Origin: a virus | Reading direction: 5' to 3' (one strand) | Length of the DNA stretch: 64,000 nt | Virus record (IMG/VR): IMGVR_UViG_3300035664_000006 | Location: 31,884 to 95,883 of that record | Shown here: positions 16,414-63,991 of the stretch, in pieces | Position numbering within the stretch: position 1 is the stretch's first letter | Layout of the letters: each line of letters opens with the position of its first letter | The notes under the pieces: generated by a model | What the model saw: the letters and a program-made list of their open reading frames with translations, nothing else | What the model was told of the DNA's origin: nothing | Database searches by the model: none | Translations under genes and position numbers: made by a program

Positions 16414-18303
16414 TCAAACTTCTTTAAACTCAGCTTGTACAACGTCTTCATCATTAGATGGTGATGATTCAGATGGTTGATCGGCTGCCTGTTTTTTCAT
16501 GAAAACTGGACTTGCTGCTTCAAATAATTTCTGGACTGATTCATTGATTTTTTCAATATCATCGCCCTTTGAAACATCGTCAATATATTGAACTGCAGTT
16601 TCAAAAGCAGATTTTTCTTCATCTGATAATTGATCTTTTACTTCATCAAAGTCTTTCTGTAAGGTATGACGTTGTGATTCAGCTTGATTACGAGCTTCGA
16701 TCAACTCTTTTTGTTTTTTATCTGCTTCAGCATTTTCTTCAGCATCTTTTACCATACGTTGAATTTCTTCTTCAGTTAAACCTGAATCAGATTTAATGGT
16801 AATATTATTTTTCTTACCTGTTGATTTATCTTGTGCTGAAATATGCATGATACCATTGGCATCGATATCGAATGTTACTTCGATTTGTGGAGTACCACGT
16901 CGAGCTGGTTCAATACCGTCTAAGTTGAATTCACCCAATTGTTTATTATAAGCATACAGTTCACGTTCACCTTGTCCCACCTTGATTGTTACTGCGGGTT
17001 GATTATCCTCAGCGGTTGAGAATGTTTGACTCGCTTTCGTAGGGATTGTGGTATTTTTCTGAATCAATTTAGTCATCACACCACCCATGGTTTCGATACC
17101 CAATGACAATGGTGTTACGTCTAATAACAAGATATCAGTTTTGTCGCCTGATAAAACTGCACCTTGAACCGCTGCACCAGCAGCCACTGCTTCGTCTGGA
17201 TTAACATCTTTACGTGGTGCCTTGCCAAACAATTTTTCAACTGCTTCTTGGACTTTTGGCATACGGGTTTGCCCACCGACTAAGATAACTTCATCAATTT
17301 CAGATAAATCGACTTTAGCATCTTTAATTGCAACTTTACATGGTGCAATACTACGTTCGATCAAGTCATCTACTAATGCTTCGAATTTAGCCCGAGTTAA
17401 TTTTACGTTTAGGTGTTTTGGACCAGTTGCATCAGCGGTGATATATGGTAAATTGACATCTGTTTGTTCAGATGATGATAACTCGATTTTAGCTTTTTCT
17501 GCTGCTTCTTTCAAGCGTTGTAAAGCCATGGTATCATTTTTTAGATTCACGCCGGTGTCTTTTTCGAATTCACTTACTAGGTGATCCATTAAACGTTGGT
17601 CGAAATCTTCACCACCTAAAAATGTATCACCATTTGTTGATAATACTTCGATTTGTTTTTCGCCATCAATGTTAGCGATTTCGATGATTGAAATATCAAA
17701 TGTACCACCACCTAGATCATATACAGCAACTTTACGATCCTTGCTGTCAGCTTTATCAACACCGTATGCAAGTGCAGCAGCAGTTGGTTCATTGATAATA
17801 CGAAGAACTTCAAGTCCAGCGATACGACCAGCATCTTTAGTTGCTTGACGTTGTGAGTCATTGAAATAAGCAGGAACAGTGATAACAGCTTGTGATACTT
17901 CATATCCTAAGTAGTCTTCAGCAGTTTTTTTCATTTTACGTAAAACTTCTGCTGAAATTTGTGGGGGTGCTAATTTGTCACCATTTGCTTCAACCCATGC
18001 ATCACCATTTTCAGCTTTAATAATTGAATATGGCATCAGGTCGATATCTTTTTGAACTGCATCTTCGTCAAATTTACGACCGATAAGACGTTTCGCAGCG
18101 TAGATTGTATTTTTTGGATTTGTAACAGATTGCCGTTTAGCGGCTGCACCTACTAATACTTCTGCATCAGTATATGCAATGATTGATGGGGTAGTGCGTG
18201 TACCCTCTGAATTTTCGATTACTTTTGTTGAGCCATTCTCTAAAATAGCTACGCAAGAATTTGTGGTACCTAAATCGATACCGATTACTGTATTTTTACT
18301 CAT
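16414..18303 (-). CDS. dnaK: chaperone DnaK
   Basis: [32 protein letters not shown]. Confidence 0.97.
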
Positions 18304-18667: not shown

Positions 18668-18706
18668 GATTTAAAGATTGAATTATACCATGGGGATTCT
18701 ATAATG

Positions 18707-19771
18707 TCAACTAGAATGTCTAGTTTTCTTTAAAGCTTTATCTTTTTTATCTTGCTCTTTCTTTAAAGCTTTATCTTTTTTATCTTGCTCTGCTTTCAAG
18801 ACTTCTTCTAATAATCCTGGATTTTGCTTACACAGTGCATGTTCAATTATATATCTAGCAGTTTCAAAATCTAATCGCCGTCTCCTAACCCCGGATTTTG
18901 TATTTCCTTTAAATGGTGCTAAAAAAACATCATGTGTATTGGTTCTATAATATTCTAATAAGATATTACAATCATCGATTAACATGTTTATATCTACTGG
19001 TGTATTAATTAATATTTTCGATGATGATCTACTACTAACTTTAACTGGACTGGTAATTTTGTCCGGTGTAGTGAAACATATTCTATCAGCGTTGGTACTA
19101 TCAAAACAGATAACACCGAAATTCCCATCATGATTATTAAACTTGATTAAATTTTTACCTAGGTTTAAAGAAGTCAAAGCAAATTTATTTAATGATTTAA
19201 ATGAGCCGATCAACTGATCATTTTTGTAGATATCATAATCATCAGATAATTCAGGACCCCATGTAATAACTATAACTGGGTGTTCAGTGTCTTCAAATGG
19301 ATTTTCTTCTAGTATGTTGATACTACGGATTCTCTTAGATTTATTTGAACTTATCTGATATGTTTCTGGGATTATAGCAACCCCATAATCAAAACTATTC
19401 AAACATTGATTTAACCCTATAACATATAAATCTTCGCATGATGGAAATAGTTCAAAGTATTCCTTGACATTATTTAACTTGTTTCTAGCTGCTGACACTT
19501 TGGCCAAATATGGTGGATTAGTAATGCATAAATCAGTATGGTGTGGCGGGATACTCTTTAAACTATCGTTAATAGGCCAGTTAAATGAATGATCTATGTC
19601 GTAGCCTTTTACTGCATAGTTATCAGCAAATGGGGAAAGTAAATCTCCGCCACCGGCAAATGGGTCAACTATCTGTACAAAATTTAAAGAATCAATAAAT
19701 AATTGAATATTTGACTTAATCCATAAATCCTTTTTTGTAAAAAACTGTCCTAGTTCAACCTTTTTTGTCAT
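18707..19771 (-). CDS. DNA amino-methyltransferase
   Basis: LGQFFT, VDPFAGGG, ITNPPY. Confidence 0.85.
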   Translation of the reverse strand: MTKKVELGQFFTKKDLWIKSNIQLFIDSLNFVQIVDPFAGGGDLLSPFADNYAVKGYDIDHSFNWPINDSLKSIPPHHTDLCITNPPYLAKVSAARNKLNNVKEYFELFPSCEDLYVIGLNQCLNSFDYGVAIIPETYQISSNKSKRIRSINILEENPFEDTEHPVIVITWGPELSDDYDIYKNDQLIGSFKSLNKFALTSLNLGKNLIKFNNHDGNFGVICFDSTNADRICFTTPDKITSPVKVSSRSSSKILINTPVDINMLIDDCNILLEYYRTNTHDVFLAPFKGNTKSGVRRRRLDFETARYIIEHALCKQNPGLLEEVLKAEQDKKDKALKKEQDKKDKALKKTRHSS

Positions 19772-19779
19772 ATATGTCC

Positions 19780-49919: not shown

Positions 49920-50837
49920 TCCATTTATAAAATTACAAATACAAATAATGAGAAAGTTTATATAGGTTTTACAAATAATTTTGAAAGAAGAATTGTAGAA
50001 CATGCTAGAAACTCAAGAAAAATAAATTCGCATTTATACTACGCTATTAAAAAATATGGGATAGATACATTCACATTTGAAATAATCTATCAATCTTTAG
50101 ATGGAGCCCATTCAAAAAATGTAATGGAGTCTTATTTTATTAATTTATATGATAGTTATCATTCTGGATACAATATGACACTTGGTGGTGATGGTACACT
50201 CGGACGATTGTGGACAGATGAACAAAAACATAAGGCAAGTATACGAAATAAAGGGCAACTATCTAACAATAAAGGTAAATCATATATTGAGCTGTATGGG
50301 GAAGAAAAAGCACTCGAAAAAATCAATAAATTAAAAAATACATGGCTTTATAAAAAATCATTAAAACCAGTTATTCAAAAAATATCTAGATTCGGTCGAA
50401 GTTACAATGAAATATTTGGTGAGGAAAAAGCTAAAGAAATATCTGAGAAAAAACGTATAAAAATGTTAGGTGATAAAAATCCTAGATATGGAAAACCTGG
50501 TACTTTTACTGGTAGGAAGCATTCCGTTGAAACTATTGCTAAAATAAAAGGAAAAACATTTGAAGAACGCTTCGGGGAAGAAAAAGCAATCATAATCAAA
50601 GAGAAATTAAGTCTCGCCAATTTGGGTGAAAATAATCCAATGTATGGGAAGGTTGGCGCGATGAAAGGAAAACATCATTCTACTGATACGAAAATCAAAA
50701 TGAAAATAGCTCATCAAAATAGAGAAAAACCTACTTATCTACAAGAACTAAAAACGTGTCCACACTGTCAAAAAACCAGCACGATTGGTAATGCAACCCG
50801 CTGGCATTTTGACAATTGTAAATTTAAAACTAATTAG
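49908..50837 (+). CDS. GIY-YIG homing endonuclease with Zn-finger-like tail
   Basis: SIYKITN..VYIGFT, GYNMTLGGDG, NPMYGK, CPHC..WHFDNC. Confidence 0.88.
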   Translation: MDIYSIYKITNTNNEKVYIGFTNNFERRIVEHARNSRKINSHLYYAIKKYGIDTFTFEIIYQSLDGAHSKNVMESYFINLYDSYHSGYNMTLGGDGTLGRLWTDEQKHKASIRNKGQLSNNKGKSYIELYGEEKALEKINKLKNTWLYKKSLKPVIQKISRFGRSYNEIFGEEKAKEISEKKRIKMLGDKNPRYGKPGTFTGRKHSVETIAKIKGKTFEERFGEEKAIIIKEKLSLANLGENNPMYGKVGAMKGKHHSTDTKIKMKIAHQNREKPTYLQELKTCPHCQKTSTIGNATRWHFDNCKFKTN

Positions 50838-51646
50838 TTTTTACCTTTGCATTCCGTTTGTTTCGATTTAGTTAATGCACCAAAATCAACCGGCCATAAT
50901 TGGTCAAGTGGTAATTCCGATGCATTAGCAGGGTATGCAAATGTAATGCCAGTCAGTTGTTGTATTTGTGTAATTGGTGCTCTAACTTTTGTTAAATCAT
51001 TTCCTAATCCTGCTTGATGCGGGAAAATGAAACCAGCTACTTCATTAGTAGTTGTATCTATTGCAATTTTATAAAACGCATGCGGTACAACTACTTTGTT
51101 AGGTCCAATAGTTTTATCTGATTGGTTATAAATTGGCCCTGCATAAATTACATATGGATGATTTCTTTGAACAACCCATCCGCGAACGCTTGTTTCAAGT
51201 AATTTATAAATTCCTCTATTTAAGTTTGGGAGCTGGGCTGCCATATTTGTCAATAAAAAGCTTTCCTTCTCCAATTGATCGAATCTTGATTGGTCAGCAT
51301 TTGGTACAATATGCCCAATATCATATCCAGAACCCTTGAAATCCACCAGTTCTGCTCTACTGCCTTTTGGTAAACTTTGATCAGGTGCGAATCCATTAGA
51401 ACGTGGTACACATCCTAATGCATATTCAGGATAAAGTGTATAAGAAACCCACACTGGCAATTTAGCAGTTGTATCATTTAATGTAACATAACCGGCACGA
51501 CAAATTGCTACACCTTGTTTAGCAGTTTGTGGAAAGCCATATGGTGATTGAACTTGACATTTTTCAATTGGGTAAGGTGCATATTGTTCCCAAGCATGTA
51601 CAGGAACTGTAAAAAATGCAGTGATTAAAAATAAAATATATTTCAT
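50834..51646 (-). CDS. secreted DNA/RNA non-specific endonuclease (NucA/EndA type)
   Basis: Signal peptide, SGYDIGHIVP, TNMAAQ..LNRG, VPHAFYK. Confidence 0.88.
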   Translation of the reverse strand: MKYILFLITAFFTVPVHAWEQYAPYPIEKCQVQSPYGFPQTAKQGVAICRAGYVTLNDTTAKLPVWVSYTLYPEYALGCVPRSNGFAPDQSLPKGSRAELVDFKGSGYDIGHIVPNADQSRFDQLEKESFLLTNMAAQLPNLNRGIYKLLETSVRGWVVQRNHPYVIYAGPIYNQSDKTIGPNKVVVPHAFYKIAIDTTTNEVAGFIFPHQAGLGNDLTKVRAPITQIQQLTGITFAYPANASELPLDQLWPVDFGALTKSKQTECKGKN

Positions 51647-51679
51647 AGTAGTCCTTTAATTAAGTACTACTATTTAACT

Positions 51680-52090
51680 TTATTTAAACCAGCCCATCTT
51701 TTTTCCTAATGTATCACGTCTGTAATATTCTTGTAAACTACCTGGAAATCGCCAAGCCCAAATAGCAACTAGTAGCATAAAGCCACCTGACCAGCAAGTA
51801 GCTTTGATGTTATAAGTAGTAAACCATAGAATAGCTAACGAACTAGCCATAACTAGTAACATCATATATTTCATTTTAGTTGGAAATATTTTGTTATCAA
51901 TCCAATTAGTTAAGAATGGTCCAAAATGTTTATGATTATATAACCATTTATTCATTACAGGACTACCTTTACTAAAACAAATAGCAGCTCCTACGAGAAA
52001 CGGGCTGAATGGCAACCCAGGTAATATAATACCCAGGTATGTAATTCCTAACAATATAAATCCAGCTATTTTCCATAACCAATTTTTCAT
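51680..52090 (-). CDS. ybaN: YbaN/DUF454 inner-membrane protein
   Basis: GIILPGLPFSPF..CFSKGS..WLYNHKHFGP. Confidence 0.8.
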   Translation of the reverse strand: MKNWLWKIAGFILLGITYLGIILPGLPFSPFLVGAAICFSKGSPVMNKWLYNHKHFGPFLTNWIDNKIFPTKMKYMMLLVMASSLAILWFTTYNIKATCWSGGFMLLVAIWAWRFPGSLQEYYRRDTLGKKMGWFK

Positions 52091-52599
52091 ACGATAAATT
52101 CCAACCATTCCTTATGTTTAACATTGAACTCAAATTTTTTACGTTTATTAACTAATTCGAAATAATCTGGTTTATATGGTTTAATGCGCGGTTTGTACCC
52201 ATGTTGTTTATCGCCTTTAGCGGAATTACATGGACCACATGCAATAACGGTATTATCCCAAGAAGTTTTACCACCTTTAGACGATGGAACAACGTGATCT
52301 AATGTCGCGGTATTTTTAGTTAGTTTAGACCCACAATATTGACATTCTCCATTATCACGGATGAAAATACTAGAGCGACTAAATCTGACCGTTGCTTTTG
52401 GTTTCATATATTCGCGTAGAATTAAAACTGATGGAACATTAGTTTCCCAGTTTGCGGAGCGGATAGTCCAATTATTGTGCCATAATACTACATCGGCTTT
52501 TTCAAGCACAATGTATTTTATAGCATCTTGCCAATTTATAGTGCTAAGTGGTAAAACACTTACTGGCATTCCTGATGCGTTCAGCAGTAAGCAGTCCAT
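52087..52599 (-). CDS. HNH endonuclease (McrA-like)
   Basis: RDNGECQYCG..TLDHVVPSSKGG..WDN..CGPCN. Confidence 0.88.
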   Translation of the reverse strand: MDCLLLNASGMPVSVLPLSTINWQDAIKYIVLEKADVVLWHNNWTIRSANWETNVPSVLILREYMKPKATVRFSRSSIFIRDNGECQYCGSKLTKNTATLDHVVPSSKGGKTSWDNTVIACGPCNSAKGDKQHGYKPRIKPYKPDYFELVNKRKKFEFNVKHKEWLEFIV

Positions 52600-52644
52600 A
52601 ATAATTTCTCTCTGTTAAATGTGTATTATATCACAATAAAGTGA

Positions 52645-53193
52645 TTATGCCAAGATACTTTGTGCAAACTCCATACCAGATTTATCTAGTGCATTTGCCC
52701 ATTGTTCTTTATTATCGGTGTCAAACACTAATTCTGGATCACTTGAAGCAATGCACCAGCTATTTTCGTGTTTATACGGTGATATTCCGTTTATTTCATT
52801 CATTAATTGATGTTCAGCCCATCCACACATACCGGCAATCATCCTCCATTCTTTTGGAGTATCGCCTCTTGATAATCTGGTAAGCATATCTTCTGATGAG
52901 CTTAATGAAAATTGATTATTGATTCGTAAGGTGTTACTAGTACGCCATTCATTAGAATGGATTATACTAAGACTTTTTGGACTTATTGGACCACCAATAT
53001 AAACGAATCCAGGTAGGTCAATTTCTAATCCCAATCGTTCGCCCAGTTCATTTACGGTCACTGGGCTACGTTTATTGATTATCAAACCTATACTACCGTC
53101 TCTATGGTGTTCAGTTACCATTATAACTGTTTTATACCATAAATTGCCTTTTACTGATGGTGGTGCGATTAATAGTTTTCCGATTAAATTCAT
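52645..53193 (-). CDS. YqgE/AlgH (DUF179) family protein
   Basis: GKLLIA, GLIINK, YIGGP, GMCGW..QL..EI. Confidence 0.85.
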   Translation of the reverse strand: MNLIGKLLIAPPSVKGNLWYKTVIMVTEHHRDGSIGLIINKRSPVTVNELGERLGLEIDLPGFVYIGGPISPKSLSIIHSNEWRTSNTLRINNQFSLSSSEDMLTRLSRGDTPKEWRMIAGMCGWAEHQLMNEINGISPYKHENSWCIASSDPELVFDTDNKEQWANALDKSGMEFAQSILA

Positions 53194-53205
53194 ATAGTTA
53201 TTTAA

Positions 53206-54006
53206 CTATACAAATCTTGATACAGAATTTTTTACGTCGGCAATAGTAATTGTTCCGTCGTTATTTCTATCTAATCCTTTATTTTGATCGTATACTGCAT
53301 GTCCACTTGAACTAATAACATGATTATCATCCTTGCCTAATGCTGCTGGGTAAAATACTGCAATATATAAATCACCAACCCCCATTCCTGGTTTAATTCC
53401 AATCATTTTAAAATATTTGTAAACATAATCAAGTTGTTCAACTGCGGTCATTCTATGCAAATCTTCAACTGATGTGCCCAATCTTCTAGCAGTACTTGGC
53501 ATAAATTGAATAAGCCCAGTTGCACCGGATGATTTATTAACTGCTTGTGGATTTACACCTGATTCTTGCTTCATAATTGCAATTAAATCATTAGATTTTA
53601 CCCCTAACTCAGACGAGACTTTTTCAAGTTTCCTATTGAAATCTGGATCTTGAATAATACTAACATCAACATCAACTGATTGCCCACTATCTTTAATATC
53701 AGCTTCAGTACTCTTAGTTAATCTACCCGCAATTTCTGGATTCTCTGCCAATGCAGAATTTAACCCAGTAATGAGTTGTTCATCTGGTTTTCCGGTAGTT
53801 GGTAATCCTAAAGCACCTTGTGCTTTAGCAACAGCAGATTTAGTATATTTCCCTAAAATCCCATCAACCCCTGGTGGTCCAACATCATAACCGAATGCTA
53901 CTAATACTTTTTGTAAATCAGCAACATCAGGGGAGATCATTCTTGTTGGAAGCGATAATGTAAATCCTTCTGCTTCTTTTAAAATTTTAAATTCATAAAA
54001 TCTCAT
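53206..54006 (-). CDS. peptidoglycan-binding domain plus lytic transglycosylase
   Basis: LQKVL..GVDGILG; QESGVNP..ATGLIQFMP. Confidence 0.85.
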   Translation of the reverse strand: MRFYEFKILKEAEGFTLSLPTRMISPDVADLQKVLVAFGYDVGPPGVDGILGKYTKSAVAKAQGALGLPTTGKPDEQLITGLNSALAENPEIAGRLTKSTEADIKDSGQSVDVDVSIIQDPDFNRKLEKVSSELGVKSNDLIAIMKQESGVNPQAVNKSSGATGLIQFMPSTARRLGTSVEDLHRMTAVEQLDYVYKYFKMIGIKPGMGVGDLYIAVFYPAALGKDDNHVISSSGHAVYDQNKGLDRNNDGTITIADVKNSVSRFV

Positions 54007-54359
54007 TAGTTACCTTTCCACTTTGGTAATGGCCCACCATAATCACTAGCTTTGACTAATTTACCTTTAATACTTTTTGGTTTTGATTCGCCACCGGTTT
54101 TGAATTTACGATTGGTATCGCGTTTTCTCAATCCTTGTGCTTTACAAGATGAAAGCTGGCTAGCACCTAGTTCTTTATCGGTTTTTTTAGATAAACACAA
54201 TTTTCTGGATGCTTTTCCTGCTTCGTCTAATTCAATTTCTTCATCAACCTTGTAAGGTGCTACTGGTTTGTGTCCACGTGGATCGCGGCTACCCTCTCTT
54301 ACTTTTCTTTTTGGTTCTACACCAATTTTTTCTTCTGATAAAATTTCACTTATACGCAT
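54006..54359 (-). CDS. basic hypothetical protein, putative internal head protein
   Basis: N-terminus MRISEILSEE. Confidence 0.6.
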   Translation of the reverse strand: MRISEILSEEKIGVEPKRKVREGSRDPRGHKPVAPYKVDEEIELDEAGKASRKLCLSKKTDKELGASQLSSCKAQGLRKRDTNRKFKTGGESKPKSIKGKLVKASDYGGPLPKWKGN

Positions 54360-54386
54360 GATTAAATCCTTAATATCATGTATTTA

Positions 54387-55199
54387 TTATATTCCTCGAT
54401 CAATCCAATCATATACCGATGCCCATTTTCTTCTACCAATCGTAGATTTCAACAAAGTTAAATCGGCCTTCGTATTATACTGTTCTGTATTTTTAGGTTC
54501 AACTAGTTCTAATGGGACATCTTCTTGGAATGCGATTTCTTCGGCAATGTCCAAATATGAGTGTGATAATCCAGTCCCAACATTCCAAATACCAGACCCA
54601 TTCACTTGTTTAATAAAATCAATATGTAATTTACATACATCACCTACCCATACCCAATCACGTTTAATACGATGTGCATTGCCCCAGACGGTTATTTTAC
54701 CCTCTGTTTTAGCTTGTTCTCTCCATCTACAAATAATATCAGTATGTGCCCCCTTTGTATGCATATATCGCCCGTATACATTAAAATATCTGAATCCTTG
54801 GACATAAATATTTTGTTGTTGTTGAAACACCCATCTATCAAATAGGTATTTTGACCAAGCATATGCAGTATGTGGATGACATGGAGCAAACTCTGAAAAA
54901 TCATTAGAGTTGCCATATACTGCACACGTACTTGCATATTGCATATGTACTTTATTCAAGTTACATTCATTAAACAACCATTGACTAAATTCATAGTTTT
55001 TATATATTATTGTATCAACATCGGTGTCACTTGTATCAGTGACTGCGCCTAAATGTATCACCCATTTATAATTTTTAACATCTGGGAAATTGTTTGGGTC
55101 CCACGTCCATGTATCAATTTCCCAGAATTCTTCTTGATTTAACCAGTCTAACATATTACGACCAATGAAACCTGTTGAACCGGTTACTAATATTCTCAT
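54387..55199 (-). CDS. hldD: ADP-L-glycero-D-manno-heptose 6-epimerase-like SDR
   Basis: VTGSTGFIG, YASTCAVYG, YAWSKYLFD, GFRYFNVYG. Confidence 0.8.
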   Translation of the reverse strand: MRILVTGSTGFIGRNMLDWLNQEEFWEIDTWTWDPNNFPDVKNYKWVIHLGAVTDTSDTDVDTIIYKNYEFSQWLFNECNLNKVHMQYASTCAVYGNSNDFSEFAPCHPHTAYAWSKYLFDRWVFQQQQNIYVQGFRYFNVYGRYMHTKGAHTDIICRWREQAKTEGKITVWGNAHRIKRDWVWVGDVCKLHIDFIKQVNGSGIWNVGTGLSHSYLDIAEEIAFQEDVPLELVEPKNTEQYNTKADLTLLKSTIGRRKWASVYDWIDRGI

Positions 55200-55205: not shown

Positions 55206-55886
55206 CTATGTAGTTTTATCATTAAAATCAAATAATGGTGTGTCCAATGGTTCTGATTTTTTAGGTTTTGGTTCTTTTTTAGGTTTTGGTTCTTTTTTAG
55301 GTTTTGGTTCTTTTTTAGGTTTTGGTTCTTTTTTAGGTTTTGGTTCTTTTTTAGGTTTTGGTTCTTTTTTAGGTTTTGTCTCAGGAATTGGATCTGGATC
55401 AATAACTTGTTCATAGAATTTATAATTGTATTTTACACCATTTGCACAAACTATATTTGTTATAGTACTATTTACTTCGAATATAGCTGTTACAGCTTCA
55501 TGTTTCCAATCGGCAGGTATATCATCATCCATTAGTATTTTTATATCGTCTTTTGATACAAGATATAATCGTTTAATACATTCAATACAATTATCTAGCA
55601 TTATATCAACACCAAAAATTGTAGACAGTGCGATATCATGACTTATACCATTTTTCATTTTAAGAATTAAGGCAGCAACCAAAAATTGCCCATCACCACA
55701 GGTTGGATCGATAAATGTTTTAGTATCATCTGTAAACAGTTCTACTGGGAATTTGTTTAAGATTTCTTCTACCAAGTCCGATGGTGTAAAGATTTCACCA
55801 GTTTGTTTGGTTCGTTCGTCATCCCTATCCACTCCTGACATATGTTCACGGGAATGGTACTCTTCTATTAATTTATTTAATATCAT
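55206..55886 (-). CDS. SAM-binding methyltransferase-like protein with KKEPKP tail
   Basis: GEIFTP, IDPTCGDGQFL, FGVDI; no NPPY motif. Confidence 0.7.
   Translation of the reverse strand: MILNKLIEEYHSREHMSGVDRDDERTKQTGEIFTPSDLVEEILNKFPVELFTDDTKTFIDPTCGDGQFLVAALILKMKNGISHDIALSTIFGVDIMLDNCIECIKRLYLVSKDDIKILMDDDIPADWKHEAVTAIFEVNSTITNIVCANGVKYNYKFYEQVIDPDPIPETKPKKEPKPKKEPKPKKEPKPKKEPKPKKEPKPKKEPKPKKSEPLDTPLFDFNDKTT
55257..55378. repeat. 18-bp tandem repeat, six copies plus partial, encoding KKEPKP
   Basis: Unit TTTTTTAGGTTTTGGTTC. Confidence 0.9.
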
Positions 55887-56973
55887 TATATGAAATATTT
55901 TTAACCATTTGAATATTTAACCATCCACTAAATCTACATGCGGTATTTAACAGTGATTTAATGCTAATAAGTCTTTCCCTAATTGCATTCGCACCCTCTA
56001 TTGTAGATGGGTATATATATAGAAATAACCCCGCATTTTCATGTCCCCCAGTAGGTTTAGTGTCACCATCAAGAATTTGAATACTTTCAACCGTTATTTT
56101 TCTAGTCATTGGTATACATACTCTTAATTTAGGTGTATTACGTTGATCAACAATGAATGCACCTAAATTATTAGTGAAATCAATTTCATGACTGAACTCA
56201 TCAGTGTTTACCTTATTGTGTAAAAACCCCAATGAAGTATCAATGTTATTAGAAAACACCAATCCGTCGTTTTTAGATTTATCAACTATTACGTACCCAA
56301 AAGAAGAACCAACAGTTGGAAAGTATTGTTTTACCGAATCAATATTAGCATATGACGAATATTGATTAAACACATTCCATAACTTGTTTTCTTTATTAGG
56401 CCCAATACGATAAATCCCTACTAAATCTCTACTAGGACTAATCCATGTAGTGGGAGTAATCAATCCAATCACACCGTCATCTTTTGATAGATCCTTGATT
56501 GCTACTGACCAGAACTTAGACCATAGATTACTTGCTTTATCCTTTCTTTTACCATCCTTAGTTATTTCTTGAAATGGTGGGTTACCCGCTATTGCGTCAA
56601 ATTTCATAATTATATCATCCTTGATATTTTGAAGTCTTTGTCTAAACTCAATACTGTAATAGGTTAGTGAGCTTATATTTTTACCTGAGAACATCGCTAT
56701 AAAATCAGTCGAATCCAGGACTTCATATGTTCCGACTAATTTGTGTGTCTTTTTAGCATTATTCATTGCCATTGAAGTTTCAAAGAACCCAAATGTAGTA
56801 GCACGAATTTCATCATCTGACAATCCCGCTGCTCTTTTTTGCTCTTCAACTACACTTACAAATTGCCCAGTTCCGGCAACTGGGTCTAAAAAATTTCCAT
56901 GAATATGATGTCCATTAAAGCCTTTTAAAATTTCCATAACAAGAGCTTCATATTGTGTTTTATTGCGTACCAT
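55873..56973 (-). CDS. Eco57I-like N6-adenine methyltransferase
   Basis: LDPVAGTGQF, FDAIAGNPPF. Confidence 0.8.
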   Translation of the reverse strand: MVRNKTQYEALVMEILKGFNGHHIHGNFLDPVAGTGQFVSVVEEQKRAAGLSDDEIRATTFGFFETSMAMNNAKKTHKLVGTYEVLDSTDFIAMFSGKNISSLTYYSIEFRQRLQNIKDDIIMKFDAIAGNPPFQEITKDGKRKDKASNLWSKFWSVAIKDLSKDDGVIGLITPTTWISPSRDLVGIYRIGPNKENKLWNVFNQYSSYANIDSVKQYFPTVGSSFGYVIVDKSKNDGLVFSNNIDTSLGFLHNKVNTDEFSHEIDFTNNLGAFIVDQRNTPKLRVCIPMTRKITVESIQILDGDTKPTGGHENAGLFLYIYPSTIEGANAIRERLISIKSLLNTACRFSGWLNIQMVKNISYNDIK

Positions 56974-57007
56974 TTATATATCCTTATAATCATGGTATTG
57001 GTATTAT

Positions 57008-57108
57008 CGTATTTCTATCAGCCAACCATGGCTTGATAAAATTTTCCTGAATCTATCCTGATTTCAGGCATGTTTTCTATCAAGTCGTCCTGACTTGATA
57101 GAAATACG
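57008..57108. repeat. 101-bp element with 13-bp terminal inverted repeats and three internal hairpins
   Basis: CGTATTTCTATCA ... TGATAGAAATACG. Confidence 0.65.
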
Positions 57109-57120
57109 GGTTATTTCATC

Positions 57121-59421
57121 CTAAACTTTTAGGTCTAATAAATCTTTATTAATTACACCTAATGTAAATAGTTCATCAATTAACTCAAACTCTATATTGT
57201 ATTCGAGTTTAAATTCATTCCTTACTACTTCATTGTTTCTATAAAAGTCCAATGCATCATCAATATTATTGATATCACCGGTACTATCACACCCATCTAC
57301 CATGAAATCGATGTTTTCAGCAACACATGCGATCACTTCTCTTACCTTGGAGATAATGTCTTTTGGGTCAGTGCTATCATCTGGTTTATTTGAGTTGCCC
57401 TTGACCGGTTTAATTACAGGCATAGCTGTTTTACCTTTTGATACTGAAGCAGTTTTAGCAATTTTTAATGCTTCTAAGTCACGTATCGCAATTGCTGCAA
57501 GTTGATCTTCATTTAAGATATCTAAATTTGCAGTTTTTCCAATGATTCTACTTCTACGATTGAAGCTGATAAATTGTTCTAAGTATTCATCAATTTCAAT
57601 CTTGATACGGTCACCATCCTCTGATGATTTATAGATATCAATCGTTTTCAATACATTACGCAATGCATTTTTCAATCCACACCCATTATTTTTAGCTTGG
57701 CTTTTGGCTGTTTCTAATATCATCGCATCAAATTTATCATCGCGATTTGGATCAAAACTTAATGAAATAATTCTAGCTAATGTTTTATTCATACCAGCTG
57801 TCAATGCACGACTGATGCGCTGTGTAGTAGTTCCAGCATCACCGTTATCATATGCCAAGTACAATTCTGAAATTTGTGGAATTGAAAAACTACGTTGAGC
57901 CATCTGAACAGCTAATATTAATGAGTGTTTATTACTCATTACTGCCTTTTCTATTTCTTCTTTAACAAATGCCTCGGCATCGGCACCTTTCATACCATCC
58001 CCGCCATATACCATTGTGATTCTATAGCCTGGTAATGTATCTTCAGCAATTCGGGCTAATTCTTTCAAGTTTTTATTGGACGTATTGTTCGGGAAAAACA
58101 TCATTGCTACTCGCTTACCTTCATCTGCTGTACGTTCAGTGATTAAGTCAACATTTAAATTATCATAATCACCATCCATAAATAAACTTCTTAATGTTTT
58201 AACCAAGAACCGTTTAGCCTTAACTGGTTTAGCTACAGTTTTACCCCAAGATGGTAAAAATACACCACCATCATCAAATACGTCTGGTTCATTGATTTTA
58301 GTATCTTCAACTGGTCCAGCTAAATCTAATTGATAGAATTCTGCATCTACTACTGATTTTGTTCTTTCTGGATCAACTGTAAAATACTTTAATGTTGTAT
58401 CATATGAGGGACGAACTGTACGTTTTTCAATAAGTAATTCTGGGTACACAACTGTATCAACAAAATCAATTTTCCACGCACTTGCCGCTCGATCAGGATT
58501 GGTGCCAGTCATAAGAATTACAACATCATCTGGCTGTTGTGCATCAATCATAGCCATTGCTTGTCCAGACCGATGCGCCCCGAAATCAGCTTCATCAATA
58601 AATGCCAATCTATCGACATCTAACCCATACAGATAGTCAATACGATCTTGTCTTAATGAACCTGGGCACAATGAAAGAAATGCAACCACTTGCTTACCAT
58701 TACTTAATGCATCATCAATTAACGATTGATAATTCCTAACTGATGTTTCCACGAACACAATATCTTTAAATTGTTCATAACCCGCTAGTTCATTTCTGAT
58801 ACTAGTACCAGCCGTAAGAACGTAGCTGGAATATATAGTTAGTGGAATACCAGCTTCCTTAACGATAGATGCTGACCAAATTGTTTTTCCAAATCTCGCA
58901 CAGAATTCCGCCAACAATACTTGTTTACCTTGTATGATTTTACCAAGGAACAACTCGGCTTTTTCTGCTTGCAAGATATTCAATGATGCGGTTGGCAATG
59001 GTTGACCAGCCTCGTAAAGAAACTTATCTACTCTATATTTAATTTCATCGACTGGAAGATCATGCCATTCCCGAGAGTTTGGTTTAATATGTCCAATATG
59101 CGGTCTGATGTAATCATCAATGTAGATATGAGATTCTCTAAATTTACCAGACTTAATGGCTAAATCAGTTACATCCCATATACCAAAGCAACCAGCTGTA
59201 CCATTTTTCCATTTATGATGACTAGTGGTCAATTGTTCTTTAATACGATCAGATACACCCTCTAATGGATCTTCGCCTGCTGGTACATAAGTTTCACCTA
59301 CTTTACCATCTACATCCGGGTTTTCACTAAAAATGTAGATGAAAACCCGTGCGTTAACTGGATCTATACTAAATTTATAATTATTAACGCCTTTAACTAG
59401 TCCTGTAACTAATTGTGCCAT
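57121..59421 (-). CDS. SF2 helicase-like protein (restriction-modification-associated type)
   Basis: ARFGKT, FIDEADFG, LMTGT, QRISR. Confidence 0.75.
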   Translation of the reverse strand: MAQLVTGLVKGVNNYKFSIDPVNARVFIYIFSENPDVDGKVGETYVPAGEDPLEGVSDRIKEQLTTSHHKWKNGTAGCFGIWDVTDLAIKSGKFRESHIYIDDYIRPHIGHIKPNSREWHDLPVDEIKYRVDKFLYEAGQPLPTASLNILQAEKAELFLGKIIQGKQVLLAEFCARFGKTIWSASIVKEAGIPLTIYSSYVLTAGTSIRNELAGYEQFKDIVFVETSVRNYQSLIDDALSNGKQVVAFLSLCPGSLRQDRIDYLYGLDVDRLAFIDEADFGAHRSGQAMAMIDAQQPDDVVILMTGTNPDRAASAWKIDFVDTVVYPELLIEKRTVRPSYDTTLKYFTVDPERTKSVVDAEFYQLDLAGPVEDTKINEPDVFDDGGVFLPSWGKTVAKPVKAKRFLVKTLRSLFMDGDYDNLNVDLITERTADEGKRVAMMFFPNNTSNKNLKELARIAEDTLPGYRITMVYGGDGMKGADAEAFVKEEIEKAVMSNKHSLILAVQMAQRSFSIPQISELYLAYDNGDAGTTTQRISRALTAGMNKTLARIISLSFDPNRDDKFDAMILETAKSQAKNNGCGLKNALRNVLKTIDIYKSSEDGDRIKIEIDEYLEQFISFNRRSRIIGKTANLDILNEDQLAAIAIRDLEALKIAKTASVSKGKTAMPVIKPVKGNSNKPDDSTDPKDIISKVREVIACVAENIDFMVDGCDSTGDINNIDDALDFYRNNEVVRNEFKLEYNIEFELIDELFTLGVINKDLLDLKV

Positions 59422-59453: not shown

Positions 59454-59523
59454 ATTATATCGTTTTACATCGAATCTGTCAAGATTTATTTCTCTTGACA
59501 TACCTTCAGCTACCTTGTATAAT
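59454..59523. promoter_or_regulatory. back-to-back consensus sigma70 promoters
   Basis: Plus strand TTGACA(59495)-N17-TATAAT(59518); minus strand TTGACA(59482)-N17-TATAAT(59459). Confidence 0.85.
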
Positions 59524-59551: not shown

Positions 59552-59857
59552 ATGAAAACAACAATTACAAAACTAGACAGGCGGCATACCGGTTATCAAC
59601 ACTTTAATTATATGGCTGTTCCAAAATGGCAGCAAAACTGGAATCATGTTGATTTGACTGATACACATCGATTAATGAGACAATGGTGCTGGGAAACATT
59701 TGGTCCAAGTTGTGAATATGATGAATACCGCTCACTTTTTGGTCATCGAGATATTAATACCAGATGGTGTTGGTTAGCGAGTGCAGAACGCCGTTCTCCG
59801 CGTATTTTAATTCAATCTGAAGAAGATAAAAACTGGTTTGTGTTGAGGTGGTCATGA
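59552..59857 (+). CDS. FxLRW-family small protein 1
   Basis: Ends EEDKNWFVLRWS. Confidence 0.75.
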   Translation: MKTTITKLDRRHTGYQHFNYMAVPKWQQNWNHVDLTDTHRLMRQWCWETFGPSCEYDEYRSLFGHRDINTRWCWLASAERRSPRILIQSEEDKNWFVLRWS

Positions 59858-60129
59858 TTAAAGTCAAGTTGAAAAAATATCACATATCAGAATTCGAACT
59901 CTTTACTCCAAAATATTACGAATTATTGACAACTTATAAAGAAATGAAGCAATGGTGTCGTGATACTTATGGTAAAGGCTATGACAATGCTACTAGAAAA
60001 TGGTGTTGGCGAAGTGGAGTAAACTCCGAAGAAGTAGAAAATGATGACTATGATACCTATAGGAAGTATGTGGTATTTTTCTTCACTAGTGAGGAACACG
60101 CGAGTTGGTTTTTAATGAGATGGGGTTAA
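59854..60129 (+). CDS. FxLRW-family small protein 2
   Basis: Ends EEHASWFLMRWG. Confidence 0.75.
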   Translation: MIKVKLKKYHISEFELFTPKYYELLTTYKEMKQWCRDTYGKGYDNATRKWCWRSGVNSEEVENDDYDTYRKYVVFFFTSEEHASWFLMRWG

Positions 60130-60130
60130 T

Positions 60131-60310
60131 ATGTTATTTGACGTGACTGATTTTCCTAAATTTGTGAGTTATGCTGAAAAAAATTATCCGCCTTTTACTC
60201 ATATGACCACTATACTTATAGCTGCCGGGTATAAATCATCCCGGTTCGCGGATGCAGATTGGTATATGGATGATATCGAATATACACATTTTGTATTGAG
60301 GTGGTCATGA
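60131..60310 (+). CDS. FxLRW-family small protein 3 (59 aa, not in ORF track)
   Basis: MLFDVTDFPK...DIEYTHFVLRWS. Confidence 0.75.
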   Translation: MLFDVTDFPKFVSYAEKNYPPFTHMTTILIAAGYKSSRFADADWYMDDIEYTHFVLRWS

Positions 60311-60513
60311 GAACTCTCATAATAACTCAAGATTCATTTCTTGATAACAAATTTTTAGATATGTGGGAAAATGATAATGACCCTAGAAATTGGGCTGATT
60401 TCATTAAAAGTTTAGATAATAACATCATGACTGTGGGTTTTAGAAATCAAACAACTACAATTCAATTTATCAATGAATCACATAAAACTTGGTTCTTAAT
60501 GAGGTATGCATGA
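60307..60513 (+). CDS. FxLRW-family small protein 4
   Basis: Ends ESHKTWFLMRYA. Confidence 0.75.
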   Translation: MRTLIITQDSFLDNKFLDMWENDNDPRNWADFIKSLDNNIMTVGFRNQTTTIQFINESHKTWFLMRYA

Positions 60514-60758
60514 GTCAAAAATTAGGATGGAAGAAGAAATATCCATTTAAAGCAACAATAAAAAGTGATAATGTAGAAGCGTCAGCATGGTTAAGATCAC
60601 AGTTTGGGCATGATTATTTAACGCTATCGACCGGTAGAAGGCTAGTACTCAATAGAAAAGACCAGGTATGGGCATTTGAGAAATGGGAGTATACTGGTTC
60701 TACATATGGATTTGGTAATGAGGAACTTAGGACGTGGTTTTTAATGAGATGGGGATGA
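60510..60758 (+). CDS. FxLRW-family small protein 5
   Basis: Ends EELRTWFLMRWG. Confidence 0.75.
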   Translation: MSQKLGWKKKYPFKATIKSDNVEASAWLRSQFGHDYLTLSTGRRLVLNRKDQVWAFEKWEYTGSTYGFGNEELRTWFLMRWG

Positions 60759-60759
60759 T

Positions 60760-60966
60760 ATGAGAATAAAGAAAATGCCATTTGAAAAGAATAGCTTTAT
60801 TCTAAGTGAAAACAAAGGTGAGCGTTCGGTATCTAAGCAAGAACAACATAGCCTTGTAGAATGGATGGAACAGAAAAATATGAGATATATCTTAACTGGT
60901 AATATCTTAACTTTACCACGAGAAGAAGATCAAACCATATTTATATTACGATGGATGACTGAATAA
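60760..60966 (+). CDS. FxLRW-family small protein 6
   Basis: Ends EEDQTIFILRWMTE. Confidence 0.75.
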   Translation: MRIKKMPFEKNSFILSENKGERSVSKQEQHSLVEWMEQKNMRYILTGNILTLPREEDQTIFILRWMTE

Positions 60967-61100
60967 AAGGACAACAATGGACAAGGAAGACCGTAACAAG
61001 GATCGGGAAGATCTATTAAACACAATAAAAAGAAAATGCAGAAAAGTGGATTAGTGGTGATAAACCAGAACCCGTTGTCACTTCATTTTCATCAGTAATA

Positions 61101-61442
61101 ATGCCAATGATTAGGAAAGTTATGCCACAAATGATAGCAAGTCAACTAACAGGAGGCCCATCTGGTATGGTTTATAATATGGGTTCTATCTTTGACACAA
61201 TTTTAACCACTCATATTGAACAAGTAGCAGTTAATGGCAAAGAAATTGATTACTATGCCATTAAAATCCCATATGGATATTTTGATAAGCACGATTTATC
61301 AACTGATGATATTTATCAATGGTGTATTGACACGTATAGTAAAGATAACGATGATAGCAGATGGTATGTGCGTGGTTCGATGACTTATCTCTTCAGAACT
61401 GAAGAAGATCGCAATTGGTTTTTATTAAGGTGGAGTTCATGA
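61101..61442 (+). CDS. FxLRW-family small protein 7 with gp23/Gol-like N-terminus
   Basis: MPMIRKVMPQMIA..GPSG; ends EEDRNWFLLRWSS. Confidence 0.75.
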   Translation: MPMIRKVMPQMIASQLTGGPSGMVYNMGSIFDTILTTHIEQVAVNGKEIDYYAIKIPYGYFDKHDLSTDDIYQWCIDTYSKDNDDSRWYVRGSMTYLFRTEEDRNWFLLRWSS

Positions 61443-61660
61443 TATTAACAAGTATTCTTAAATTTGAAACAGAAGGTAAACTGATTAATTATTATTCAGT
61501 TAGAGTGCCAAACATATCACAACGAGAAGTAGATAGCTGGTGTTTAAAAACATTTGATCTCTCTGAAGACAAAGATAGATGGTTTACTGATGGATGGTTT
61601 GTTTATTATTTCAAAAACGAAGAAGATCGAAATTGGTTTTTATTAAGGTGGGGGTCATGA
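61439..61660 (+). CDS. FxLRW-family small protein 8
   Basis: Ends EEDRNWFLLRWGS. Confidence 0.75.
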   Translation: MILTSILKFETEGKLINYYSVRVPNISQREVDSWCLKTFDLSEDKDRWFTDGWFVYYFKNEEDRNWFLLRWGS

Positions 61661-61956
61661 TAACCAATTTATGTCAGGAGGTAGTTATGGATTCTGGAAT
61701 GTTTTATGCACCGTATATTCCAGTTGGCATACCAGGAATAAAACCGTATTCTTTTATCAGAAAGGTTGACGATGTTAATGAAGCATGGTATACTATAAAA
61801 ATACAGCATCCACCAGCAGTGGATTGGATGATAGAGGAATTGCCAATCGGTAGTTGGCGGTATGCTGCCAATACACCATTAGGTGGATGGGTAGATCTGT
61901 CGGTATACGATTTAAGAGAAGATGCATATAGTTGGTTTACGCTGAGGTGGTCATGA
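61657..61956 (+). CDS. FxLRW-family small protein 9 with gp23-like peptide
   Basis: DSGMFYAPYIP; ends EDAYSWFTLRWS. Confidence 0.75.
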   Translation: MITNLCQEVVMDSGMFYAPYIPVGIPGIKPYSFIRKVDDVNEAWYTIKIQHPPAVDWMIEELPIGSWRYAANTPLGGWVDLSVYDLREDAYSWFTLRWS

Positions 61957-62171
61957 AAGTCAAGATCTATAAATTAGATCCGTATGAAAATGCGATTAAG
62001 GAAGCAATCGAAGAACACAATCTTCAAGATATACGAGGATACGATAGAATTATTCGTAAGTTAGGGTTTCCTAGTTGTGAGTTTATTCCAAATCTGGGGA
62101 AGGCTGCTGATAGTCATTGGGAGATGGATGAAATTGAGTTTACTTGGTTTGCATTAAAGTTCAGTAGATAA
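61953..62171 (+). CDS. FxLRW-family small protein 10
   Basis: Ends EIEFTWFALKFSR. Confidence 0.75.
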   Translation: MKVKIYKLDPYENAIKEAIEEHNLQDIRGYDRIIRKLGFPSCEFIPNLGKAADSHWEMDEIEFTWFALKFSR

Positions 62172-62173
62172 TC

Positions 62174-62386
62174 ATGGTATCGATTAATATAACTCACAAT
62201 CAATGGAACAAATTAGTATTCTATTATGATGAGTCCGATTCTAGTATTCAGGCAATCCGTTCATCACGAGAAATGAAACAATACATCAAAGATACCTATC
62301 ATGGAAATTATGATCAATTAAAAGGTTTTGGGACCATCACATTTGAGCATGAACATCATCTAACTTGGTTTTTATTAAACATATGA
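62174..62386 (+). CDS. FxLRW-family small protein 11
   Basis: Ends EHHLTWFLLNI. Confidence 0.7.
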   Translation: MVSINITHNQWNKLVFYYDESDSSIQAIRSSREMKQYIKDTYHGNYDQLKGFGTITFEHEHHLTWFLLNI

Positions 62387-62652
62387 GATTTGAAGATATA
62401 AAACTACGATACACTGTTGTACTCGACAATTTAGATGACCTAAGAAAACATGCATCTGAGTTGCCACCCGGTATACGACCAGATGATTATGATGCAATCG
62501 CTGACATTATGTGCAAATGGTGTGAACAGCAATTTGGTGAGAAGACAGTAAAATGGGATTATTGGCTAGCTAAAGCTTATGATCCAGCTGAAGATCATTT
62601 TAGTTTTGAAGAAGAATATCAACGAACCTTGTTTGTATTGAGGTGGTCATGA
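62383..62652 (+). CDS. FxLRW-family small protein 12
   Basis: Ends EYQRTLFVLRWS. Confidence 0.75.
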   Translation: MRFEDIKLRYTVVLDNLDDLRKHASELPPGIRPDDYDAIADIMCKWCEQQFGEKTVKWDYWLAKAYDPAEDHFSFEEEYQRTLFVLRWS

Positions 62653-62870
62653 GTTTACCTATAAATGGTACATATGAGTTATTTTGTCATCTTGGGTTAA
62701 TCCATTGTTTTGATGATCCAGGATTTTGTATTCGCGATGTTGCTGAAATACACGAATGGATTAGACAACAGCCTACTGATCTTTGGAGGGGTATGGATGA
62801 ACCATATGCGTATACTGTATATTATTTGCAACCTGAATTGTATATTTGGTTTAAAATGAGATGGATATGA
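62649..62870 (+). CDS. FxLRW-family small protein 13
   Basis: Ends PELYIWFKMRWI. Confidence 0.75.
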   Translation: MSLPINGTYELFCHLGLIHCFDDPGFCIRDVAEIHEWIRQQPTDLWRGMDEPYAYTVYYLQPELYIWFKMRWI

Positions 62871-63121
62871 AACAAACATTATCAAATGCTGATTTACAGA
62901 AATTATGGGCTAATTGGCTATTAACTTTACAAGGCCAACATGTCAGTGGCTATGGGCTTAGAATGAGTTACGATACTCAATCTCGTAATTATGGTCCTGC
63001 TAGGTGCTTCGAAGATTGGTTATTTTCACAAGGCGCAATAGTTAAACAAGTTAAAGGTAAACGCCACTTGGAATTCATGACACCAGAACAAGCAACATGG
63101 TTTAAACTAAAATGGCTATGA
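62867..63121 (+). CDS. FxLRW-family small protein 14
   Basis: Ends PEQATWFKLKWL. Confidence 0.75.
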   Translation: MKQTLSNADLQKLWANWLLTLQGQHVSGYGLRMSYDTQSRNYGPARCFEDWLFSQGAIVKQVKGKRHLEFMTPEQATWFKLKWL

Positions 63122-63300
63122 CCATTGATTTAGAAATTTTTCGCGAACCAACTACTGTTTTTATATGGTTATGTAAATCGTTTGGGCCACCTGGATTAAA
63201 CCATGGTAGGTGGGAGTTGCGAGACTTGAGATATATAGATTTTCAGAATGATATGGACAAGACGTTCGTATTATTAAAATTTGATTTAAAGGGAAAATAG
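63118..63300 (+). CDS. FxLRW-family small protein 15
   Basis: WLCKSFGP..RW..DMDKTFVLLKF. Confidence 0.7.
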   Translation: MTIDLEIFREPTTVFIWLCKSFGPPGLNHGRWELRDLRYIDFQNDMDKTFVLLKFDLKGK

Positions 63301-63303: not shown

Positions 63304-63639
63304 ATGATTAATGGGATACAAAGTAATAGCGCACATATATTGGCTTATTCAAATGGCAGTTCTTCAATAACATCCGGTTCATTACGAATACAAAATGGTA
63401 GGTTAGAAGCATATGCTGGTTATAGTTGGACACCAGTAGAATATGAGAATGGGATAGTTGGGTTAACAACACAAGCTGAACAGGCGATAGATTGGGCATA
63501 TAAAAAAATGATTGAAGAAAAAGAAGAACAAATTTTAATCGAAAAATATCCATCATTGGGTAGTGCTAAAGGTCAATATGAAATGATCAAGAAAATATGT
63601 CAAGCTGAGGAAGAACTTGACACCAGTAAAGGAGTATAA
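63304..63639 (+). CDS. hypothetical phage protein
   Basis: AIDWAYKKMIEE..EKYPSL. Confidence 0.65.
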   Translation: MINGIQSNSAHILAYSNGSSSITSGSLRIQNGRLEAYAGYSWTPVEYENGIVGLTTQAEQAIDWAYKKMIEEKEEQILIEKYPSLGSAKGQYEMIKKICQAEEELDTSKGV

Positions 63640-63642
63640 TAT

Positions 63643-63991
63643 AATGGAGTTCATAATTTTAATTGCACTGCAATTAAAACATTGGTACATAGATTTTGTT
63701 AATCAAACCGATGCAGAAGTTGTCAGTAAAGGCCATTATGGGGAATTAACCGGTATACTGCATAGCGCAAAACATGGTATTGGAACCGGGGTTATTTTTC
63801 TATTCATTGATCCATATCTAGCTCCAATCATGGTATTATTTGATGGGTATTTACATTACCACATCGATTGGGCTAAACGTAATTTTGGTAATCAAGATAT
63901 CCAGAATCCTAAATTTTGGGCACATCTAGGTCTTGATCAGATGGCACATCAGTTATGTTATATCGGGTATGTAGCAATGGTGGTGTTATGA
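63643..63991 (+). CDS. DUF3307-like membrane protein
   Basis: KHWYIDF..Q, HSAKHG, HYHIDWAK, GLDQMAH. Confidence 0.75.

Follow-up and report, generated by a model that had tools for sequence, protein, structure and literature searches.

Why would a phage carry 15 related small genes in a row behind one promoter? This question is raised by a stretch of 64,000 nucleotides (nt) from the IMG/VR virus record IMGVR_UViG_3300035664_000006 (positions 31,884 to 95,883), hereafter called the window, in which 15 same-strand open reading frames (ORFs) occupy positions 59552-63300. The window forms the final 64 kb of a viral contig of 95,883 bp whose CheckV completeness is 26% and whose GC content is 31-37%. 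Because the contig encodes, among other features, a DnaK homologue and a virion protein whose closest matches are proteins of T4-like cyanophages, it can be assigned to a large, uncultivated freshwater phage within the wider T4-like radiation. Below we give a genetic and structural description of the array and of the protein family that it represents, which is very probably correct, and then consider what these proteins might do.

A polycistronic unit behind a host-type promoter

A preliminary description of the locus, made from its sequence, had placed a perfect sigma70-type promoter ahead of 15 small ORFs on one strand and had reported ATGA overlaps at 10 of the 14 junctions. Both the promoter, which matches the consensus at 12 of 12 positions, and the counts were recovered (Table 1). 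Three further junctions have gaps of 1-2 nt, and the apparent gap of 134 nt before member 7 proved to be the 5′ part of that gene, as detailed below. The array promoter is paired with a second perfect promoter on the opposite strand, and such a divergent pair also lies 5′ of the array in two related contigs (G001 and L043). Nine perfect sigma70 sites are present in the window compared to 0.11 expected, and thus host-type consensus promoters are a real trait of this phage.

No terminator is predicted on the + strand from position 59523 up to the next promoter at 63617, so the 15 genes and the unrelated ORF of 111 amino acids (aa) that follows them look like one operon. The stop/start overlaps, together with Shine-Dalgarno sequences (GAGG or GGGG) located within the upstream genes 6-9 nt ahead of the start, form the sequence pattern of a translationally coupled operon. 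At this level, the region is shown to be a single polycistronic unit of 15 coupled paralogues behind a host-type promoter, in which ribosomes would be handed from one cistron to the next. The sigma70-type promoters, our sole guide to timing, suggest that the array proteins are made early. The window shows no enrichment of the T4 late-promoter motif TATAAATA (13 observed vs 15.6 expected), and therefore it yields no independent early/late classification.

A family of small single-domain proteins

Are the 15 ORFs truly related? To avoid circularity, we used a profile of 126 database proteins, each less than 60% identical to every window member. This external profile, which supersedes leave-one-out profiles of 14 members each (9 of 15 recovered), detects 12 of the 15 members at E <= 1.5e-4, and the window's remaining 584 ORFs all have E > 0.2. 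Members 9 (E 0.018), 3 (E 0.038) and 10 (E 0.44) are divergent. Members 3 and 10 represent a short subtype that retains mainly the C-terminal half and, given its E value, the inclusion of member 10 depends on its motif, its position and its likeness to the member 3 type. The paralogues are only 15-35% identical to each other. The data support the view that the array ORFs are true paralogues with a common fold.

The fold of member 1 was predicted with AlphaFold using 150 family sequences. A single confident domain was obtained (predicted local distance difference test [pLDDT] 92; predicted template modelling score 0.83), a small alpha/beta domain with the topology beta-beta-alpha-alpha-beta-beta-alpha. 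Conserved columns (Y20, W45-C46, F50-G51, R71-W72, F87, E90/D92, W95, F96, L98, R99 and W100) are found in every secondary-structure element and include the aromatic residues Y20, W45, F50, W72, F87 and W95/F96/W100. Conservation therefore spans the whole domain and extends well beyond the codons that overlap the next gene's Shine-Dalgarno sequence.

This distribution also bears on the shared C-terminal WFxLRW motif, which the preliminary description had interpreted as a common docking motif attached to a variable payload. That interpretation is not supported. Because conservation runs throughout the domain, WFxLRW is not only a tag; in the model, the motif is the C-terminal helix of a compact single domain, and an added N-terminal piece is present in only a minority of family members. 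The same helix could nevertheless carry a shared binding surface.

When the 15 members and 135 relatives were scanned together, the family core matched no model in Pfam-A, PHROGs v4, NCBIfam or PADLOC, and no core-domain match to curated families emerged either when 8 of the 15 window members were searched one at a time. The only curated matches are to major-capsid models, and these fall on N-terminal extensions. Foldseek returned no match in the Protein Data Bank (PDB) with E <= 0.001, and the best VIA-align score against 48,161 chains (Z 5.7) is within the stated background of 7-8. Structural resemblances to a kinase N-lobe or an ACT-like domain are treated as chance, as is a profile similarity to the forkhead recognition helix (E 0.28). 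The predicted fold does match entries in BFVD (Foldseek E 6e-9 to 1e-6, TM 0.79-0.86). Unannotated “uncultured Caudovirales phage” proteins of freshwater phages in UniProt/BFVD (for example, A0A6J5LGE9 and A0A6J7WDI0) share both the family and its predicted fold; BFVD yields only such uncharacterised entries, which provide no clue to function. Together, the sequence comparisons and the model show that the paralogues represent a previously undescribed family of proteins with what is predicted to be one small alpha/beta domain.

Motif codons that double as initiation signals

It had been noted that DNA encoding a terminal LRWS plus stop recurs at four gene ends, and that this DNA supplies the Shine-Dalgarno sequence and start codon of the next gene. 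Both observations are borne out. The sequence TGAGGTGGTCATGA ends at positions 59857, 60310, 61956 and 62652, giving four copies where 0.00 are expected. The codon AGG is used for 7 of 11 motif arginines, whereas it makes up 8% of the arginine codons when 22 long window genes are counted. Followed by TGG and the next codon, it creates GAGG/GGTGG 6-9 nt 5′ of the overlapping ATG. Across 22 loci, the next start overlaps or abuts the stop codon in 164 of 203 family members (81%). These features show that the Arg-Trp-Ser/Gly codons (AGG TGG ...) double as the putative ribosome-binding site for the next cistron.

The motif is not maintained for initiation alone. Among the 29 members of these loci that lack a coupled next start, 24 retain an [RK]W end, indicating that it is constrained at the protein level too. 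The terminal member 15 of the window has a degenerate end. Member 6 keeps the motif even though its motif arginine is encoded by CGA and a separate AAGGA precedes the next start. The use of AGG shows no clear difference between coupled and uncoupled members (60% vs 46%).

Gain and loss of whole cassettes

Comparison with close relatives reveals how the array changes. In G001, the flanking genes match those of the window (with 84% identity for the helicase-like gene, and with both post-array ORFs present), but the array holds 7 members rather than 15, namely the orthologues of members 1, 2, 3, 7, 9, 14 and 15 in the same order. A second array in G001 follows the orthologous genes at a point beyond the end of the window contig. 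Two contigs that are about 97% identical to the window each carry one extra gene: L043 (97.5% DNA identity) has an extra member of 72 aa between members 3 and 4, with GAGGTGGTCATGAG on both sides, and L044 (97.3% identity) has an extra gene of 85 aa between members 14 and 15. Within the window, members 7 and 8 had been noted to share 3′ sequence, and their DNA is indeed 89% identical over the last 15 codons vs 52% over the 59 codons upstream.

The insertions and deletions of cassettes, the GAGGTGGTCATGAG repeats and the common 3′ end of members 7 and 8 support the gain and loss of whole cassettes by recombination in the conserved junction DNA. Copy number thus differs between syntenic loci and the breakpoints fall at unit boundaries, as is characteristic of viral multigene families with tandem gain and loss. 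The preliminary description had proposed that the array both expands and shuffles. Expansion and contraction are borne out, whereas shuffling is not: gene order is collinear among the relatives compared, which differ only in the presence or absence of members. From the sequences and the fold model, the cassette junction can be shown to combine four putative roles, serving as helix end, ribosome-binding site, start codon and recombination site.

The retained copies are not drifting. The ratio of nonsynonymous to synonymous substitution rates (dN/dS) is 0.04-0.34 for six of eight scorable orthologue pairs, at 46-98% identity; for example, member 1 and its G001 orthologue are 72% identical with a ratio of 0.21. 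The two exceptions are member 7 vs L002 (0.63, where the window copy is damaged) and member 9 vs L003 (0.59), and the ratio of member 9 vs L002 is 0.04. These values show that the orthologues evolve under purifying selection, and the low ratios therefore mark the array genes as functional.

Distribution and amplification

A family profile search among 1.84 billion representative sequences gave 399 clusters (at 50% identity), all of 43-160 aa. No match was obtained when 50,697 GenBank phage records were searched by megablast with the array or by tblastn with member 1 and P0096 (a relative of the PDAWSRW subtype), and no relative turned up when 185,579 prokaryote genomes were scanned by pattern. 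By these searches, the family occurs only on viral metagenome contigs. All family-bearing IMG/VR and metagenome contigs are fragments of large phages, with GC contents of 32-43%.

Some of these phages carry far more copies than the window. Three arrays totalling 40 copies lie on the 77 kb of G004. The layout of its first array recurs in part of the 306-kb metagenome contig Ga0214182_1000001 (L047), suggesting that both derive from one phage. The most extreme case is G007 (IMGVR_UViG_3300044613_002694), which has 110 profile matches on 94 kb. Its positions 1973-20959 (loci L041 and L042) contain the largest array found, with 78 consecutive one-strand members in 19 kb, and perfect sigma70 promoters occur inside this run. 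The first arrays of G001, G004 and L043, like that of the window, lie directly behind perfect sigma70 promoters, and the remaining arrays have such promoters internally or not at all.

A second lineage is represented by L045/L046 (JACCDY010079759.1, JACCEA010658410.1), which has a GC content of 43% and 37 members in 20 kb and lacks perfect sigma70 promoters. Thus, the family is not tied to one host type or promoter style. On the window contig but outside the window, a weak sixteenth profile match (E 9e-4) covers only the C-terminal part of the domain (G000:C1:12685-12759, - strand). One database protein of 141 aa (P0010) contains two family domains in one polypeptide, corresponding to a fused neighbouring pair. 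Longer fused forms (278-2000 aa) were searched for and none was found, although this is weak evidence.

Capsid-like heads of members 7 and 9

The longest intact frame of member 7 in the window begins at ATG 61101 and encodes 113 aa, but the gene itself starts with the ATG at 60977. DNA alignment with L002 and L003 shows that the frame is broken by one extra A (+1) in the run at 61027-61031. A 15-nt in-frame deletion near 61154 removes the residues VQPMT, and both changes are judged against four relatives. The gene is intact in L002, L003, L043 and L044, where about 158 aa are encoded from the ATG matching window position 60977. The damage in the window may be real decay or an assembly error.

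The first 77 residues of the intact orthologues show homology to gp23 from T4-like phages. A 58-residue segment aligns with residues 74-130 of JSE gp23 (pairwise E 3e-8), and BLAST with a head of this type returns gp23 of JSE, Moon, Bellamy and others (E 5e-5). The aligned segment spans the most conserved block of gp23, P.IRR..P.LIA.D..GVQPM..P.G. Positions 61080-61193 of the window match positions 2-44 of the 376 in PF07068 with 17.2 bits, below the 24.4-bit cut-off, whereas relatives match positions 3-48 above the cut-off (33-48 bits) in ORFs of 125-165 aa; the heads of these relatives also match major-head PHROGs. Member 7 and its relatives are not Gp23 capsid proteins, since only a fragment of PF07068 is matched and not the HK97-like body.

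Member 9 carries two gp23-like motifs. Its residues 11-33 match residues 452-475 of JSE gp23 (E 2e-4), and within its N-terminus the motif NLCQEV (cf. LIAFDICGV) is joined directly to MFYAPYIP (cf. gp23 452-475). From what is generally known of the HK97 fold, these two gp23 motifs presumably are neighbouring strands of the P-domain. About one-tenth of family representatives have a capsid-like head. AlphaFold models the gp23-like segment as flexible (pLDDT < 50) and not docked on the core, leaving the idea of a tethered ligand that docks in cis without support.

Judging from the position of the 29-residue Gol peptide in gp23 (residues about 93-122), the block matched by member 7 probably corresponds to this peptide. 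The Gol region of T4 gp23 activates the Lit protease and binds EF-Tu (PMC3014915, PMC8829019); it is reported to contact EF-Tu domains II/III and to inhibit the EF-Tu GTPase (reviewed in PMC3014915). The resemblance lies in the homology of the member 7 orthologues to this part of gp23. However, the fragment is fused to an unrelated small domain rather than being part of a capsid protein, and in member 7 of the window the matching block is partly deleted. A connection to EF-Tu or Lit is a candidate.

Possible functions of the array

Several features point to host takeover or counter-defence as the function of the family: the small size of the proteins, their stable scaffold, their variable surfaces and wide range of isoelectric points (pI 4.5 to 9.8), the flux in copy number, the early-type promoters and the neighbouring early operon. 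This divergent operon includes a helicase-like gene and a split N6-DNA methyltransferase. The array proteins would constitute an early-made set of paralogue-specific binders of host proteins or defence components, and the size of the set might track an arms race. In the two conserved sub-lineages of members 7 and 9, the domain would be preceded by a flexible peptide whose sequence was copied from the best-conserved parts of gp23, most likely as a mimic, a decoy or an EF-Tu-targeting peptide. We judge the complete account, in which the array as described serves as such a set, to have slightly less than an even prospect of being correct. The assignment of a counter-defence or host-takeover function to the family, which is drawn from context, is somewhat more tentative.

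A number of points weigh against this assignment. No member has a homologue whose function is known, and the structural matches all stay within background (best Z 5.7). The timing of expression was deduced from promoter type alone. Selection is purifying rather than positive, a pattern as compatible with fixed functions as with an arms race, and to propose at least 100 distinct targets in one host is to ask a lot. Furthermore, the capsid-like heads could indicate a role in head assembly, and the head of member 7 is damaged in the window.

One alternative is that the family acts as a counter-immunity carrier scaffold. The sub-lineages of members 7 and 9 would then display mimics of the most conserved strands of gp23, which are of the Gol type and would bind EF-Tu, and jam Lit-type sensors, and by being presented early in infection these mimics would pre-empt abortive infection triggered by capsid sensing. 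Most paralogues would specifically inhibit defence or toxin proteins of the host, and junction recombination would tune the set, which may reach about 100 genes. We consider this elaborate version unlikely.

It is also possible that the proteins are packaged or capsid-bound, as internal head proteins, decoration or assembly factors, with the gp23-like pieces co-assembling with or capping the capsid protein. The sole recognizable fusion partner of the family is indeed a gp23 segment, and the member 7 orthologues mirror the first quarter of gp23 by placing an N-terminal helix ahead of the conserved motif. Moreover, polymorphic internal-protein loci are known in T4-type phages. However, the promoters follow the host sigma70 consensus and are not of the late type, the capsid-like piece is restricted to about 10% of family representatives, and no capsid genes adjoin the arrays in any contig examined. 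In addition, the capsid-like piece is broken in the window genome while the neighbouring genes are intact. A head-associated role is improbable on this balance.

Equally improbable, in our estimation, is a role in regulating gene expression, in which a shared face rich in arginine and tryptophan would recognize RNA, DNA, the ribosome or EF-Tu. The paralogues would then adjust the transcription or translation of phage or host genes, with the Gol-like head serving as a handle for EF-Tu. The near-invariance of R71, R99 and several tryptophans would suit such a face, the Gol region has been reported to bind EF-Tu (PMC3014915), and there is the weak resemblance to the forkhead recognition helix. 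That resemblance is not significant, however, and neither Foldseek nor VIA-align (48,161 chains) recovered a nucleic-acid-binding fold. Many members are acidic (pI 4.5-5), and dozens to a hundred paralogues would be unexpected for regulators.

Least probable of all is selfish or neutral amplification, in which cassettes multiply by unequal crossing-over, without a distinct function per copy, because each has its own ribosome-binding site and start within a recombinogenic junction: whole-cassette changes between junction repeats, 3′ ends homogenized at the DNA level and large copy-number differences among relatives would fit, but open frames are kept in orthologues with low dN/dS in six of eight pairs, the paralogues are old (15-35% identical), and conservation of the core residues extends over about 400 clusters from phages of 32-43% GC.

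The capsid-peptide fusions offer a testable handle on function through EF-Tu or capsid sensors. Approximately 400 protein clusters could receive annotation together.

Other features of the window

The members of the array and other features are listed in Table 1. The helicase-like protein encoded by the divergent operon (about 766 aa, with a FIDEAD motif) has no Pfam or PHROG match and only weak relatives in cyanophage S-CAM7. The N6-adenine DNA methyltransferase gene that follows it is split into ORFs of 366 aa (Eco57I-like) and 226 aa (N6_Mtase). This entire helicase-like/methyltransferase module is absent from L002.

Elsewhere, a DnaK/Hsp70 homologue is located behind a perfect sigma70 promoter. 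Its identity is 50-56% with the homologues of published huge phages (LR7565xx) and 64-70% with bacterial- or phage-labelled records. A cluster of accessory genes encodes a DNA/RNA non-specific endonuclease, an HNH endonuclease, an AlgH-like DUF179 protein, a lytic transglycosylase with a peptidoglycan-binding domain and an NAD-dependent sugar epimerase. ARAGORN reports a tRNA with anticodon CTA (“tRNA-Pyl”), which is of the amber-suppressor type and could indicate TAG read-through or recoding in some genes of this phage. The array operon is followed by a gene for a DUF3307-like membrane protein, which scores just under the Pfam cut-off. The promoter of this gene overlaps the 3′ end of the one before it, and the contig stops in or just after this ORF. 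The G001 counterpart of this gene is followed by a further array.

Table 1. Features of the array and its surroundings. E values are for the profile of external database proteins against each member. Starts are those of the ORF listing, except for member 7, which is listed there from 61101.
Feature	Coordinates	Strand	Length (aa)	E value	Remarks
sigma70-type promoter, array head	59495..59523	+			TTGACA-N17-TATAAT; 12/12 match
sigma70-type promoter, divergent helicase-like/split DNA methyltransferase operon	59454..59482	-			12/12 match
Member 1	59552..59857	+	101	6e-16	array head; ends LRWS
Member 2	59854..60129	+	91	6e-17	ATGA overlap with member 1
Member 3	60131..60310	+	59	0.038	short divergent subtype; FVLRWS end kept; G001 orthologue
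Member 4	60307..60513	+	68	4.5e-6	ends LMRYA
Member 5	60510..60758	+	82	1.5e-11	
Member 6	60760..60966	+	68	4e-5	ends ILRWMTE
Member 7	60977..61442	+		2.5e-20 (core)	frameshifted; gp23-like N-terminal piece
Member 8	61439..61660	+	73	7e-18	resembles duplicate of member 7 core; no counterpart in G001
Member 9	61657..61956	+	99	0.018	gp23-like N-terminus with NLCQEV and MFYAPYIP
Member 10	61953..62171	+	72	0.44	divergent; ends ALKFSR
Member 11	62174..62386	+	70	3e-6	ends WFLLNI
Member 12	62383..62652	+	89	2.6e-15	
Member 13	62649..62870	+	73	3e-5	
Member 14	62867..63121	+	84	1.5e-4	G001 orthologue
Member 15	63118..63300	+	60	6e-7	terminal; degenerate end VLLKFDLKGK
Last gene of putative operon	63304..63639	+	111		non-family; no Pfam or PHROG match
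Next perfect sigma70-type promoter	63617..63645	+			new transcription unit
DUF3307-like ORF	63617..63991	+			follows operon
Divergent helicase-like/split DNA methyltransferase operon	55206..59421	-			likely ATG of helicase-like gene at 59421
Accessory genes	50834..55199	-			
sigma70-type promoter, DnaK/Hsp70 homologue	18682..18710				perfect match
DnaK/Hsp70 homologue	16414..18303	-			
tRNA, anticodon CTA	712..786	-			

Comparison with known systems

Three kinds of known gene clusters resemble parts of this arrangement. The internal-protein locus of T4-type phages is hyperplastic, and its products carry an N-terminal capsid-targeting sequence that is cleaved off; one of them, IPI*, has an anti-restriction function. 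As in the arrays, variable small proteins share one short conserved terminal element. However, the conserved element is here a predicted C-terminal helix, the promoters are of the early type, and there is no sequence similarity.

A second comparison is with the gp37-60 module of SPO1 and the early small genes of T4, packed runs of mostly dispensable small genes whose products are aimed at host proteins. Like the array, these are tight runs behind strong host-type promoters and are often translationally coupled. Their genes are unrelated, whereas the window array and its relatives are composed of paralogues of one domain, with up to 78 in a row. Our literature search found no described phage multigene family of this type, and we know of no phage case with dozens to about 100 tandem paralogues.

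Families of that size are instead a hallmark of large eukaryotic DNA viruses, which together with the SPO1 and T4 modules provide the nearest analogues. The multigene families MGF110/360/505 of African swine fever virus and the amplification of K3L in poxviruses are examples of such families or “genomic accordions,” which are thought to act in host range or immune evasion. The likeness consists of diverged tandem paralogues and of whole-gene changes in copy number between close strains. The differences are that the arrays reside in phages, that the fold is unrelated, and that units of about 220 nt are chained by stop/start overlaps. Up to about one-fifth of a 94-kb contig is devoted to one previously undescribed small domain, and the four-role junction would provide a sequence-level mechanism for accordion-type evolution in phages.

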